Below are positions 12,007 through 34,125 of a stretch of DNA of 56,522 nt, piece after piece (within the stretch, counting starts at the first letter, position 1; every line of letters begins with the position of its first letter). The stretch covers positions 1-56,522 of the forward strand of contig JAUYAT010000057.1 of the NCBI GenBank assembly GCA_030693295.1, in the 5' to 3' direction. Made by a program: the position numbers and the translations under genes. The notes beneath the pieces are model-generated. The model ran no database searches. It had not been told where the DNA came from and saw only the letters and a program-made list of their open reading frames with translations. The DNA comes from a bacterium. Lineage in GTDB: Bacteria > Patescibacteriota > Patescibacteriia > Patescibacteriales > VMTK01.

Positions 12007-12090
12007 GGGCATGTGGAGAAATTGGTAAACTCGCCAGCTTGAGGGGCTGGTGCTCGCAAGGGCTTGGAGGTTCGAGTCCTCTCATGCCCA
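12007..12090 (+). tRNA. tRNA-Leu(GAG), class II
   Basis: Acceptor GGGCATG/CATGCCC, anticodon arm CCAGC-TTGAGGG-GCTGG, long variable arm, T-arm GGAGG-TTCGAGT-CCTCT, discriminator A. No encoded CCA. Confidence 0.9.
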
Positions 12091-12097
12091 CGTAAAA

Positions 12098-12282
12098 GGG
12101 CGCGTAGCTCAGCTGGTTAGAGCGCTTCGTTTATTCACCCGCCTAAAATTTTGGGCTCGTAGCTCAGTTGGTTAGAGCGTCTCGTTTACACCGAGAAGGT
12201 CTTCAGTTCGAGTCTGAACGAGCCCACAAAAATTTTGGCGGGCAAGCCGAAGAGGTCCAGGGTTCGATCCCTTGTGCGCCCA
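12098..12282 (+). tRNA. tRNA gene (Ile-like body) interrupted in the anticodon loop; outer member of a nested tRNA pair
   Basis: 5' half 12098-12129 (GGGCGCG, D-arm GCTC-AGCTGGTTA-GAGC, CTTCG). 3' half 12248-12282 (CGAAG, AGGTC, CAGGG-TTCGATC-CCTTG, TGCGCCC, A). All stems pair. 118 nt lie between the anticodon-stem strands. Confidence 0.6.
12153..12226 (+). tRNA. tRNA-Val(UAC), located inside the interrupted tRNA
   Basis: GGGCTCG/CGAGCCC acceptor, GCTC/GAGC D-stem, TCTCG-TTTACAC-CGAGA anticodon arm, TTCAG-TTCGAGT-CTGAA T-arm, discriminator A. Confidence 0.9.
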
Positions 12283-12287
12283 CAAAT

Positions 12288-12320
12288 AAAGACAAGTTCA
12301 ACAAAGCTTGTCTTTATTTT
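12288..12320 (+). terminator. rho-independent terminator after the tRNA cluster
   Basis: AAAGACAAG ... CTTGTCTTT stem followed by ATTTT. Confidence 0.6.
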
Positions 12321-14632: not shown

Positions 14633-14657
14633 TAATTGTTGTGAGTTTTGCGTTTTT

Positions 14658-14759
14658 GCGGACGGGATACAGAGCCCTGATGGGCGAAGTAGCCCGTACG
14701 CATCCGCCACGAACATTGCATAACGCGTACGGGCTACTCCCTTGTCGTATCCCGTCCGC
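14658..14759 (-). other. GC-rich 102-nt compound hairpin (candidate structured RNA / 3' UTR element)
   Basis: 13-bp outer stem GCGGACGGGATAC/GTATCCCGTCCGC, side hairpin GCCC-TGAT-GGGC, 13-bp inner stem GTAGCCCGTACGC/GCGTACGGGCTAC, 23-nt apical loop. Strand assignment comes from context only. Confidence 0.35.
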
Positions 14760-30186: not shown

Positions 30187-30310
30187 TGGTCTCGGCACAG
30201 TCTCCTCGCAAGGGACTGTGCCGCCGTGAATTTTTATTTTAATAATTTTTTGGTCTCGGCATTTTTTGGTCTCGGCACAGTCTCCTCGCAAGGGACTGTG
30301 CCGCCGTGAA
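30187..30310. repeat. two tandem REP hairpins plus a partial copy
   Basis: TTGGTCTCGGCACAGTCTCCTCGCAAGGGACTGTGCCGCCGTGAA at 30187-30230 and 30267-30310. Partial TTGGTCTCGGCA at 30250-30261. Confidence 0.85.
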
Positions 30311-30315
30311 ATTTT

Positions 30316-30867
30316 TTAAAAATCCATAATATCTACCGCGTAATACCCCTTGCCTAAAATATAATTAGACGCGCTTGAATATAAGTATTCTTCCGGATTC
30401 TCCGCTAAACCCCATTTTTCATGGCAAGGGTTGTTATGAATATAATTTAATTTCTGTAAAAAGAATTTTTGCGACTGGATTATTAATGAATCAAACCTTT
30501 TCTTAAACACTTTATGTTTTGCGTTACTCTTGACATCGGCCTTTGCTTTGAAAAAATTCAGCATTTCTCTATTTCCGTCCTTTTCCAGTTGAGCCACTAT
30601 TCCATAGGCTAAAAATCTTTTGGCGTTTTGCGTTAATTTTGAAATATCCGGCGCTGCTGTTGACAGTTTAATTATACAATGCAGATGATTGGGCATTATT
30701 ACATAGCCGTAAATTTTATTGCCGTATTTATCGCGCATGTAATCAAACCATTTATAAACCAATGAGCAATATTTATCGCTGATAAAAATATGCTTCCAAT
30801 CTAATATTGTAAAAGTAACAAAATATATTTCATTATTTGTATTTGTTATTTTAACCCGTACTGCCAT
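30316..30867 (-). CDS. IS200/IS605-like Y1 (HUH) transposase, RAYT type
   Basis: YVIMPNHLHCII (HUH motif) and YIHNNP (catalytic Tyr region). 183 aa. Confidence 0.85.
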   Translation of the reverse strand: MAVRVKITNTNNEIYFVTFTILDWKHIFISDKYCSLVYKWFDYMRDKYGNKIYGYVIMPNHLHCIIKLSTAAPDISKLTQNAKRFLAYGIVAQLEKDGNREMLNFFKAKADVKSNAKHKVFKKRFDSLIIQSQKFFLQKLNYIHNNPCHEKWGLAENPEEYLYSSASNYILGKGYYAVDIMDF

Positions 30868-30892
30868 AAATTAATATTTTTACTGCTCATTG

Positions 30893-30934
30893 CCGCGGCA
30901 CAGTCCCTTGAGAGGAGATTGTGTCGAGACCGAA
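30893..30934. repeat. inverted REP copy upstream of the RAYT gene
   Basis: CCGCGGCACAGTCCCTTGAGAGGAGATTGTGTCGAGACCGAA, an imperfect reverse complement of the 30187 REP. Confidence 0.8.
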
Positions 30935-32884: not shown

Positions 32885-33029
32885 TAATATTAGCAAAATA
32901 TTTATTATGCTGTATTAAATTTTCTTTAATATTAGCGATATTATTTTTATTTTTGTTTAATATTAGCGATATTATTTATCATTTTACCTAATATTAGCCA
33001 TATTATTTATAGTTTTGTTTAATATTAGC
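32885..33029 (+). repeat. iteron-like TAATATTAGC(G/C)ATATTATTTAT repeats, four copies at an exact 31-bp period plus one upstream
   Basis: TAATATTAGC at 32885, 32927, 32958, 32989 and 33020. The last ends 15 nt before the nested tRNA locus. Another copy is at 34921-34930. Confidence 0.8.
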
Positions 33030-33044
33030 GATTAATTCCTTTTT

Positions 33045-33255
33045 GCCCTCGTAGTTTCCGCCCAAGGCGGATCAGCCTCTGGCTGACAATAGGTACCTGC
33101 CCGCCATGGCCTGAGCCCCCGTAGTTTAATGGATAGAATAGGAGACTCCTAAGCTCTAGATAGAGGTTCGATTCCTCTCGGGGGCACAGGCGATGGCAGG
33201 CGGGGAATAGGAAACTCCTAAGCTTTATATAGAGGTTCGATTCCTCTCGAGGGCA
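33045..33255 (+). pseudogene. tRNA-Arg(CCU)-like gene split in the D-arm; outer member of a second nested tRNA pair, anticodon stem degenerate
   Basis: 5' piece GCCCTCG-TA-GTTT (33045-33057). 3' piece GAAT-A-GGAAA-CTCCTAA-GCTTT-ATAT-AGAGG-TTCGATT-CCTCT-CGAGGGC-A (33205-33255). The acceptor stem pairs perfectly, with a compensatory T5/A68 change relative to the inner gene. Confidence 0.5.
33115..33186 (+). tRNA. tRNA-Arg(CCU)
   Basis: GCCCCCG/CGGGGGC acceptor, D-arm GTTT-AATGGATA-GAAT, anticodon arm GGAGA-CTCCTAA-GCTCT (one A-G mismatch), T-arm AGAGG-TTCGATT-CCTCT, discriminator A. Confidence 0.8.
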
Positions 33256-33326: not shown

Positions 33327-33470
33327 ACTCCGCCCTGCCCCTCCTCTTATACAAGAGGAGGGAACAATTCCCCAAGCCATCTCCTTAAATAAGAGGAGGG
33401 AATTATGAGCAGGTGTTATTTCATCCCCTCCTCTAAGATTAGAGGAGGGCAAGGGAGGAGTTGACGGACG
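33327..33470. repeat. composite hairpin repeat family B, unit 1 (upstream of DUF559 gene)
   Basis: AACTCCGCCCTGCCCCTCC...GGAGGGCAAGGGAGGAGTT outer inverted repeat encloses three CCCTCCTCT-N-AGAGGAGGG hairpins. Confidence 0.8.
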
Positions 33471-33513
33471 GGAAGACAGCATATGGTATTTAAAAAAAAC
33501 AAACAATCATCTT

Positions 33514-33903
33514 ATGTCCCAAGTATTTAATTTGCCACATCAAAAAGCATTAAGAAGAAAATTAAGGAAGCAGGAAGTTGGAGCAGAAAAGAAATTATGG
33601 CATAGATTAAAGCTTGATCAACTTGGTTTTAGATTTCGCCGGCAATACGGAATTGGAAAATATATAGTGGATTTTTATTGCCCATTATTAAAATTAGCGA
33701 TAGAGCTTGATGGTGCAACCCATTCTACCAATGAAGAAATAAAAGATGATATTAAAAGGCAAAAATATTTAGAAAATTTAGGATTAACAGTTAAAAGATA
33801 TTTAAACATTGATGTATATGAAAATTTGGACACGGTGATTGATGATATTTATAAAAGTTGTATATTTTTAAAATCAAAAATAAAAGATGGGAGCGAGAAG
33901 TAA
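33514..33903 (+). CDS. DUF559 / Vsr-like endonuclease-domain protein
   Basis: E..LW..L......G..FRRQ..IG.YIVDFYC....LAIELDG..H pattern typical of DUF559 (restriction-endonuclease-like fold). Confidence 0.85.
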   Translation: MSQVFNLPHQKALRRKLRKQEVGAEKKLWHRLKLDQLGFRFRRQYGIGKYIVDFYCPLLKLAIELDGATHSTNEEIKDDIKRQKYLENLGLTVKRYLNIDVYENLDTVIDDIYKSCIFLKSKIKDGSEK

Positions 33904-33910
33904 GTTTTTT

Positions 33911-34125
33911 TACTCCACCCCAGCCCTCCTCTTAAACAAGAGGAGGGGGTTACTTCACCCCGTCCTTTCTCTTATCAAAGAGGAGGGAACTATGAGCAGG
34001 TATTATTTCGTCCCCTCCTCTAAGATTAGAGGAGGGCAAGGGAGGAGTTGACGAACGTGCTTTTACTCCGCCCTGCCCCTCCTCTTATACAAGAGGAGGG
34101 AACTATATTAAACAAGAAGAGGGGA
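33911..34125. repeat. composite hairpin repeat family B, unit 2 plus a partial unit 3
   Basis: 33911-34056 is a direct repeat of 33327-33470 with scattered substitutions. 34063-34110 repeats the first hairpin again. Confidence 0.8.

Follow-up and report, generated by a model that had tools for sequence, protein, structure and literature searches.

The window, that is, the whole 56,522-nt stretch of DNA analysed here (contig JAUYAT010000057.1 of GenBank assembly GCA_030693295.1), stems from a bacterium of the Patescibacteriota, or Candidate Phyla Radiation (CPR), and carries a tRNA gene nested within a second tRNA gene at positions 12098-12282. Homologues of its L19 protein assign it to the Parcubacteria/Patescibacteria (CPR). 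The gene order around this locus (site 1) is rluD-like, gmk, rplS, tRNA-Leu(GAG), nested tRNA, and tsaE. The rplS gene, encoding ribosomal protein L19 (11620-12000), ends 7 nt before tRNA-Leu(GAG) (12007-12091, forward strand; ARAGORN and Rfam), which is the upstream gene in the rplS transcription unit and served as the synteny anchor. The order L19, tRNA-Leu, tRNA-Val is conserved among relatives. Downstream of the nested genes, a hairpin followed by a T-run (12288-12320, forward strand) was read from the sequence as terminator-like. It would end the rplS-tRNA unit, and its position is kept in two related contigs, L258 and L259 (loci used for comparison are given L numbers throughout). For the whole window, seven ordinary tRNAs were called by ARAGORN and Rfam.

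At site 1, two halves of a class I tRNA enclose a 113-nt insert with a canonical tRNA-Val(UAC), all on the forward strand. The 5' part of the outer gene (12098-12133) comprises the acceptor strand GGGCGCG, the D-arm, the anticodon-stem strand CTTCG, and loop positions 32-35 (TTTA). The inserted element (12134-12246), as delimited by the alignment of filled and empty sites described below, takes the place of a CA at positions 36-37 of the resident tRNA. It starts with the terminus TTCA (12134-12137), which is followed by the left arm CCCGCC-T-AAAATTTT (12138-12152), the inner tRNA-Val(UAC), hereafter called the cargo (12153-12226; ARAGORN/Rfam ends 12226/7), the right arm AAAATTTTGGCGGG (12229-12242), which pairs with the left arm in RNAfold, and the 3' terminus CAAG (12243-12246). 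The closed-loop sequence of the element is CAAGTTCA. The 3' part of the outer gene (12247-12282) contains loop position 38 (C), CGAAG, the variable loop, the T-arm, the acceptor strand, and the discriminator A.

The inner gene reached an ARAGORN score of 122.2 with the anticodon UAC, and 71.5 bits with Rfam RF00005 (gathering score 29). When introns were allowed, ARAGORN called the outer tRNA at 12098-12283 with a score of 113.1 and a 111-nt 'intron'. The fold predicted by RNAfold for 12098-12282 (-74.4 kcal/mol, z = -4.3, with none of 200 shuffles as good) contains the outer acceptor stem and a 14-bp arm helix; an internal loop of 8 x 5 nt is followed by a 6-bp and an 8-bp helix with a 1-nt bulge, and the arm helix stacks coaxially on the inner acceptor stem. 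The chance expectation for two D-arm consensus motifs 36 nt apart in the window was 0.00. The same arrangement, identical in this region, was present in an independent assembly (Logan SRR13727537, L001), which makes mis-assembly a very unlikely source of it.

These analyses confirmed the original prediction of a complete tRNA-Val(UAC) that interrupts the anticodon loop of another tRNA gene with four paired stems. Its statements that the insert is far too short for a group I intron and that no archaeal bulge-helix-bulge motif could be drawn were upheld by Rfam and by the fold, which contains no such motif; the insert belongs to neither intron class. Intron_gpI remained without a match both at the gathering threshold and at E ≤ 5, and only 39 nt of the element lie outside the cargo; group I introns have a conserved catalytic core (P3-P8) and a length of ~200 nt or more. 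In a bulge-helix-bulge motif, a 4-bp helix at the exon-intron boundaries lies between two 3-nt bulges. Searches of Rfam at the gathering threshold and at E ≤ 5 returned tRNAs only, apart from a sub-threshold YrlA match arising from tRNA-like pieces.

The identity of the outer gene was revealed by L258 (NCBI metagenome-assembled genome GCA_022012935.1, TsaE 98% identical) and L259 (JGI 3300038466, TsaE 92% identical), which carry an uninterrupted tRNA-Val(UAC), GGGCGCATAGCTCAGCTGGTTAGAGCGCTTCGTTTACACCGAAGAGGTCCAGGGTTCGATCCCTTGTGCGCCCA, at the same locus and with near-identical flanks. The spacing between rplS and tsaE is 236 nt in both contigs, compared to 348 nt in the window. Alignment of the empty with the filled site yielded TTTA(CA)C and TTTA(TTCACCCGCC...GGCGGGCAAG)C, respectively. 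The empty loop reads TTTACAC and the filled one TTTA(TTCA...CAAG)C; the element of the window corresponds to TTCA plus 109 nt, and the junction sequence of the empty site is TTTACACCGAAG. No target-site duplication of the kind left by classical MITEs and DNA transposons was found in this comparison, and two bases (CA) were replaced. The outer 3' part (12247-12282) is 100% identical to L258 and L259, and the outer 5' part differs from them solely by A7>G, which gives a G·U pair in the outer acceptor stem and is the only other difference in the tRNA gene. After the window flanks had been rejoined through CA, ARAGORN recognized the rebuilt gene as tRNA-Val(UAC) with a score of 120.7. In more distant relatives (L005-L009, L19 ~80% identical), a single tRNA-Val(UAC) follows tRNA-Leu.

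Judged from these alignments, the outer gene is the resident tRNA-Val(UAC), which was hit recently. The alternatives weighed in the original prediction, tRNA-Ile(UAU) or a gene with the anticodon UAA (tRNA-Leu), were ruled out by the uninterrupted tRNA-Val(UAC) in L258 and L259, the same isoacceptor as the inner gene. The cargo is identical to the outer gene at 56 of 74 positions and to the L005 orthologue at 55 of 75; outer gene and L005 orthologue share 63 of 75. Because only 56/74 positions match, the cargo is foreign and not a local duplicate. No single excision produces a 7-nt anticodon loop in the outer gene: removal of the core (CCC...CAAG) leaves 9 nt and removal of the whole element 5 nt, since the element replaces the native CA.

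Further variation was seen at this gene. In L002 (94%), a different insertion, GCTCAGCTGG^CCCGCCTCG (a caret marks a junction), lies in the D-loop of the same tRNA-Val gene, and the contig end of L012 (94%) reads CTTCGTTTAC. The short-read contigs of L002, L003, L004, L011, and L012 end inside the tRNA-Val gene. These breaks are consistent with strain mixtures of filled and empty alleles that disrupt the assembly graph.

Related elements were retrieved from a metagenome collection with the pattern TTCACCC, D-arm, GGGCARG, which left the outer gene unconstrained. At least 120 loci were found; together with earlier loci this amounts to at least 129 instances, at least 92 of them unique, and at least 89 unique copies after removal of three chance matches. 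As TTCACCC and GGGCARG were fixed by the search pattern, the conservation of the ends follows from the pattern. All family values given here and below refer to the copies listed. The cargos are tRNA-Val(UAC) (33 copies), Val(CAC) (23), Met(CAU) (21), Ile(GAU) (7), and Val(GAC) (5). An anticodon-arm context fitting the anticodon of the cargo was observed in all 89 unique copies, none of which is intergenic.

A single junction rule describes these copies: the element (X) abuts or replaces a native CA. The junctions are TTTA^X^C for Val(UAC), TTGA^X^T for Val(GAC), TTCA^X^T or TT^X^CAT for Val(CAC), CT^X^TAA for Met, and GAGCG^X^CTGATAA for Ile(GAU). When the outer genes were rebuilt as flank, CA, and flank, 51 of 89 were callable as tRNA, 42 of these 51 with the anticodon of the cargo, compared to 0-5 for nine alternative junction models. 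The rule was directly confirmed by the empty site in L258 and L259, because this site shows the CA. TTCA always precedes the core; of these four bases, CA alone pre-exists in the target and TT is new. In a genome scan that was independent of the pattern (see below), TTCA recurred in eight nested genes and the CAAG-type end (GGGCARG) recurred as well; L123 has CTCA instead, with a clean junction of the core. Going by these matches, the family is widespread, mostly in Patescibacteria (CPR).

Several observations bear on the mobility of the element. The inserts of L022 and L048 are nearly identical (same arms and same cargo) and reside in clearly different outer genes, the anticodon stems of which differ up to the junction. 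Fully identical elements lie within variant outer genes in L140, L148, and L177. Spread by homologous recombination through the outer halves was rejected because the near-identical inserts of L022 and L048 abut different anticodon stems. Crossover by a serine or tyrosine recombinase at the CA core and simple cut-and-paste with staggered cuts were also rejected; neither the second CA nor the TT that these would leave at the right junction was seen. A search of all fetched loci for tandem or circle junctions (GGGCA(A/G)G followed by TTCACCC) gave one chance match only. No direct repeats were found at the element junctions, and the 113-nt element has no open reading frame (ORF) or integrase gene. 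Separate left and right subterminal hairpins as in IS200/IS605 are absent from the element; a single helix forms between both ends. The cargo was not systematically nearer to its own outer gene nor to other cargos, and neither exclusively local copying nor a single travelling cargo lineage holds.

The arms are inverted repeats and vary strongly in sequence, with 74 distinct left arms among the at least 89 copies. Arm positions 4-11 covary (CG, GC, TA, and AT pairs, 82-98% pairing), and the mean duplex energy was -17.9 kcal/mol for a copy's own arms vs -11.1 kcal/mol for combinations with the arms of other copies. The pairs are Watson-Crick on both strands, with 7 G·T vs 12 A·C among ~780 pairs. 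A transcribed RNA helix normally tolerates G·U on one strand only. The counts, which lack a strand bias, weakly favour selection at the DNA level over selection at the RNA level and are not decisive. Flipped copies occur in the D-loops of L107 and L257 (GCTCAGT^CTTGCCC...GGGTGAAG^(C/T)TAGAG) and comply with the CA rule when the bottom strand is read, namely at the CCA that lies opposite G18-G19. Insertion at the DNA level is favoured because the flipped copies keep the rule, which RNA-level insertion would not.

Cargo and outer genes differ in their state of preservation. The acceptor stems of the cargos were fully paired in 79 of 79 cases, without a mismatch. Among the callable outer genes, already the best-preserved subset, 42 of 51 had a fully paired acceptor, with 14 mismatches in total and more G·U pairs. 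The remaining 38 of the 89 outer genes were not callable due to extra hairpin insertions or truncation (e.g., L145). The extra insertions are cargo-less, GC-rich hairpins in D-, variable, or T-loops. Eight D-loop hairpin insertions were retrieved with one narrow pattern from 1.7 Mb of fetched loci, all in outer genes that also contain a cargo insertion. Three-layer 'Russian-doll' loci were found in L107, L257, L019, L191, and L252. The arm helix persists where the outer gene is degraded (-17.0 vs -18.7 kcal/mol). On the evidence of the family, the outer halves at 12098-12282 are best read as a young pseudogene and not as a split tRNA.

A second nested pair, also predicted originally, was found at 33045-33255 (site 2), though with the insert in the D-loop and not in the anticodon loop. 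The inner tRNA-Arg(CCU) (33115-33186) was called by ARAGORN and Rfam, the fold has z = -5.9, and JGI contig L253 independently carries the same arrangement. On the forward strand, the 5' part of the disrupted tRNA-Arg(CCU), GCCCTCG TA GTTT (33045-33057), is followed by a cargo-less double hairpin in the D-loop (CCGCC-CAA-GGCGG, ATCAGCC-TCT-GGCTGA, 33058-33086). The cargo element (33096-33204; fold, ARAGORN, and Rfam) consists of the arm CCTGCCCGCCATGGCCTG, the inner tRNA, and the arm CAGGCGATGGCAGGCGGG, and sits between the D-loop remnant AATAGGTA and the 3' strand of the D-stem, GAAT. The 3' part of the disrupted gene (33205-33255) is 92% identical to that of the cargo and has a weakened anticodon stem (G28·U42, A30·C40).

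The states found among relatives span those seen at site 1. One uninterrupted tRNA-Arg(CCU) is present at the syntenic place in L254 and L255 (77%). L253 (97%) shows the same nesting with an outer 3' part that still equals the cargo; relative to L253, the window copy carries four additional substitutions, and two of these weaken the anticodon stem. L257 (71%) contains a triple nest with clean D-loop junctions, AATGGA^CCTGCCCGCC...GGCAGGCGGG^TAAAAC. L259 and L253 derive from one sample, site 1 being empty in L259 and site 2 filled in L253. The double hairpin, (C)CGCC-NNN-GGCGG-ATCAGCC-TNN-GGCTGA, is conserved and lies in the D-loop of each of three disrupted tRNAs that are unrelated to one another (Arg, Val, and Met; window, L238, and L252). 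Site 2 is the same phenomenon as site 1, in the D-loop of a tRNA-Arg(CCU).

The surroundings of site 2 are rich in repeats. Four to five tandem 31-bp repeats (TTTAATATTAGCGATATTATTT plus spacer) lie directly upstream of the nested tRNA-Arg (32888-33032), also in L253; they might be a promoter, iterons, or a binding array. A gene for a DUF559 (Vsr-like endonuclease) protein (33514-33903), 260 bp away from site 2, is flanked by ~140-bp direct repeats of CCCCTCCTCT-loop-AGAGGAGGG hairpin units. The region as a whole (33327-34106) looks like a mobile cassette and separates the nested tRNA-Arg from tRNA-Ala. The sequence TTCACCCC at 33954 was considered as a cargo-less family member and rejected, as it is a variant of a different repeat unit. 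Elsewhere in the window, ~108 nt of GC-rich nested long hairpins upstream of tRNA-Cys (14652-14759, reverse strand) fold with -70.3 kcal/mol (z = -9.6) and have no Rfam match at E ≤ 1.

Nested tRNA genes were also sought in one genome per GTDB species, as two D-arms 20-50 nt apart, which gave at least 120 loci. Nested genes were recognized by comparing the normal and the long-intron mode of ARAGORN; this two-mode test was preferred to flank duplex energy, which was dropped as a classifier because GC-rich genomes pass by chance. Among the matches listed, there were at least 21 clear tRNA-in-tRNA genes, at least 18 of them labelled CPR by the depositors, whose own taxon labels were used (Parcubacteria, Saccharibacteria, Microgenomates, Berkelbacteria, Woykebacteria, Magasanikbacteria, Nomurabacteria, and Moranbacteria). 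Most of the non-CPR matches inspected turned out to be a 5' tRNA fragment ahead of a full tRNA and not a nested gene. Where both inner and outer gene were readable among the matches listed, they shared the amino-acid identity and, with few exceptions, also the anticodon. Two scans of viral contigs gave no matches.

Several insert families were distinguishable by their ends: the window type (TTCACCC...GGGCA(A/G)G), a cleanly joined Thr type (TTCG^CCCGCC...GGCAGG^TAA), a TCCC...GGGA type in which positions 36-40 are deleted, a long-flanked Ile(UAU) type, an AT-rich type at position 26/27, and a D-loop type (A21^CC(C/T)GCC...GGC(A/G)GG^G22, for example GGTTA^CCCGCC...GGGCGGG^GAGC). The nested tRNA-Ile(UAU) genes (L018, L086, L096, L101, and L121) have flanks of 30-45 nt with the common motifs GAGYGAG, CGAACGAAC, and TATATGTA. 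Part of their anticodon loop (CTTATA) is duplicated, and the outer anticodon of L121 reads UAC.

Two further arrangements were noted at tRNA loci. A perfect 20-bp palindrome, CCTGCCTGCCGGCAGGCAGG, occurs at L115 (1137 and 2042), L145 (4544), L174 (162), L196 (1092), L217 (2030), and L246 (784), in a D-loop, a variable region, a relic anticodon loop, an apparent T-loop (L115), and apparently non-tRNA sequence; the contigs are unrelated, and one belongs to a cultured Maribacter. In the Bacteroidetes loci L020, L026, L106, and L112, one or more 5' tRNA fragments are followed by a full copy of the same tRNA and then by a GIY-YIG nuclease ORF of 80-100 aa. L257 (1337-1600) contains, in this order, a full tRNA-Ala, a GIY-YIG gene, and a 5'-truncated tRNA-Ala. 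This arrangement may be an ORF-bearing counterpart of the same replacement logic.

Twelve proteins of the window were compared with profile libraries. A REP-associated tyrosine transposase (RAYT, HUH Y1) is encoded at 30316-30867 on the reverse strand (NCBIfam NF047646, 88.1 bits, cut-off 80; PDB 4ER8 TnpArep, E = 0.0025). Its three REP hairpin copies, GGTCTCGGCACAGTC..GACTGTGCCGCCGTGAA, lie at ~30189-30231, 30269-30311, and 30891-30932. In sequence, these REPs (GGCACAGTC...GACTGTGCC) do not resemble the arms of the inserts. Two of the three REP copies start with TTCAC on the opposite strand, as do the tRNA inserts. No DUF559 homologue was found near other nested loci (tblastn, fetched loci), and the only RAYT homologue in the fetched loci was that of L083, a Sediminibacterium locus without a nested tRNA. 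We speculate that mobilization takes place in trans and at the level of DNA, through a nuclease or transposase that is structure-specific. Conceivable candidates, none of them demonstrated, would be enzymes of the HUH Y1/RAYT type and endonucleases of the GIY-YIG or DUF559 type.

In our interpretation, a 113-bp ORF-less insert of a mobile family very probably disables the resident tRNA-Val(UAC) of this ultra-small CPR bacterium and replaces it. The segment 12134-12246 entered the anticodon loop of this syntenic gene very recently, in place of the CA at positions 36-37. As a 7-nt loop is not regenerated by any single excision, the insertion would destroy the resident gene, and the cargo would take over decoding as the working copy. 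The cargo would be transcribed together with rplS and tRNA-Leu, and the 14-bp arm helix probably prevents its cloverleaf from pairing wrongly with the homologous outer halves. The cargo tRNA may then be released by RNase P and ordinary 3'-end processing, with the outer halves as by-products. Since the element would disable the gene that it replaces and carry the sole working copy, it would be hard to lose, and repeated invasions would leave layered, decaying relics. Extending this beyond the window, we lean, by a narrow balance of judgement, towards an undescribed class of selfish 'replacement cassettes': ORF-less elements of ~110-130 bp, widespread in CPR, that home to loops of tRNA genes, disable these genes, become indispensable as carriers of the only working copy, and create Russian-doll loci by a structure-specific chemistry unlike that of known transposons (CA to TTCA-hairpin-cargo-CAAG, on either strand, without target duplication).

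Some findings weigh against this interpretation. The interpretation does not account for the additional TT on the left side of the element, the family counts come from biased samples (fixed ends, one D-arm type, and the matches listed), and no mobilizing enzyme is linked to the element: the RAYT of the window has different REPs, and neither DUF559 nor RAYT genes were found near other nested loci. Moreover, the outer stems of the window copy are all intact with one substitution only, and this copy shows no decay by itself, which is expected given a very young insertion. The insertions always fall within cloverleaf loops, and the outer genes of L140 and L148 differ by a compensated acceptor pair; both can be read as selection on the outer structure. 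Finally, the Thr and D-loop insert families have clean junctions from which exact removal would restore a normal tRNA, and removal at the RNA level may take place in these families.

The latter points, together with the pairing of all four outer stems and an arm helix that brings the outer halves together, speak for an intron or split tRNA. Here, either the halves would be ligated after removal of the insert, or the inner tRNA would be freed by RNase P and RNase Z while the halves work as a paired split tRNA, so that the locus yields two tRNAs. We consider this unlikely. The outer gene would be redundant, being the same isoacceptor as the cargo, and a single excision leaves 9 or 5 nt in this family, never a 7-nt loop. 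The insertion is a strain-level polymorphism, and the intact stems of the window copy reflect youth and not selection. Throughout the family, outer genes decay, are truncated, and gain insertions while the cargos stay perfect; flipped copies keep the same rule on DNA, and neither a bulge-helix-bulge motif nor a ribozyme match was found. The split or ligated outer tRNA considered in the original prediction is therefore unlikely for this copy, given the uninterrupted orthologues, the loop lengths after excision, and the decay of the outer genes in the family. That prediction had itself named uninterrupted orthologous loci and an intact gene for the same isoacceptor as signs of a dead outer gene, and both were largely found, the intact gene being the inner one.

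The outer halves and the helix might also be a scaffold useful to the host, which aids folding, processing, or regulation of the inner tRNA or yields functional small RNAs from the tRNA halves. The retention of the arm helix in degraded outer genes and its coaxial continuation from the inner acceptor stem would suit such a role. It is nevertheless quite improbable in our view, because close relatives manage without the insert and the outer halves themselves are not conserved. Conservation of the arms, which are Watson-Crick on both strands, is explained equally well by constraint on the element.

A local rearrangement in which replication slippage or recombination duplicated the resident gene within itself, without a mobile element, could be suspected where cargo and outer gene are nearly identical (L101, L170, L252, and L253). 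It is highly improbable here: the window cargo matches its outer gene at a mere 56 of 74 positions, the same junction rule applies to at least 89 copies, the search-defined ends recur in the independent genome scan, and nearly identical inserts occupy different outer genes. An assembly chimera at a repeated tRNA sequence, which the frequent contig breaks of relatives in this tRNA (L002-L004, L011, and L012) might suggest, can practically be dismissed in view of the identical arrangement in L001, more than 120 contigs from many samples with the same architecture, and a helix and junctions too regular for such an artefact.

If confirmed, the insertion with replacement proposed here would be a new route by which a mobile element survives in an essential single-copy gene, with a full replacement nested inside the target. 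It would neither be spliced out, as introns and inteins are, nor rebuild a gene end, as integrative islands do. For annotation, it is relevant that tRNA finders silently report the inner gene only and leave broken outer copies unrecorded. A survey described thousands of 'long-intron' tRNA calls of ARAGORN without a group I intron match (bioRxiv 10.1101/2020.01.27.920355). Nested tRNAs might be among such calls. In the evolution of CPR bacteria, these elements would allow core tRNA genes of reduced genomes to be replaced horizontally, and tRNA genes would join the rRNA genes, whose many insertions in this group are already known. The junction rule, which is precise and strand-symmetric, and the pair of empty and filled alleles make the mechanism directly testable.

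In a literature search, with most subscription journals outside its coverage, no description of tRNA genes nested in bacterial tRNA genes was found, in line with the original remark that no described bacterial equivalent was known. With moderate confidence, we regard this kind of insert as undescribed. Its closest counterparts share some traits with it and differ in others. Like the bacterial group I introns in tRNA-Leu(UAA), fMet, Ile, and Arg genes, it is mobile, resides in a tRNA anticodon loop, and is tolerated owing to compensation of the damage to the host gene. In contrast to these introns, it has no ribozyme core, compensates by a whole replacement gene instead of splicing, and leaves an exon junction that is not restorable. 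Archaeal disrupted tRNA genes, which comprise those with bulge-helix-bulge introns at many positions as well as split and permuted tRNAs, likewise have insertions in the D-, anticodon-, and T-loops, in some cases several per gene, with a helix that joins the flanks. The elements described here differ from them by the lack of a bulge-helix-bulge, the bacterial host, the complete cognate tRNA inside, the decay of the outer genes, and a junction rule that is strand-symmetric at the DNA level.

Among mobile DNA, REP/REPIN-RAYT systems and the IS200/IS605-derived PATEs are similarly short, ORF-less, and hairpin-forming, with short terminal motifs and no target-site duplication. REP/REPIN and PATE elements are mobilized in trans, and a RAYT gene is present in the window, as in REPIN systems. 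The target of an IS200/IS605 element already contains a fixed tetra- or pentanucleotide, on the 3' side of which the element inserts without target-site duplication. Unlike in REPINs and PATEs, the two ends pair in one helix that encloses a gene-sized cargo, and the empty site lacks the TT of TTCA; strict confinement to cognate tRNA genes is no known property of REPINs. Integrative elements and genomic islands that target tRNA genes and restore the displaced end also hit a tRNA gene and bring sequence that keeps its function. These islands are of kilobase scale and use an encoded integrase and att recombination, which leaves direct repeats at the 3' end, whereas the present element measures 113 bp, lacks an ORF and direct repeats, and places a complete gene within a loop of the old one.

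Intervening sequences of 23S rRNA and the rRNA insertions of CPR bacteria resemble it as helical inserts in loops of structural RNAs with an enrichment in CPR. They differ in that the fragmented molecule stays functional, or in being introns; a tRNA cut in the anticodon loop cannot decode. Enrichment of rRNA insertions in CPR bacteria was described in a study in which tRNA genes are unmentioned (PMC11270868). The tRNA and GIY-YIG cassettes of the Bacteroidetes loci and of the CPR locus L257 follow the same replacement logic, with a full tRNA beside a broken copy, but carry a nuclease ORF and have their fragments in tandem rather than nested.

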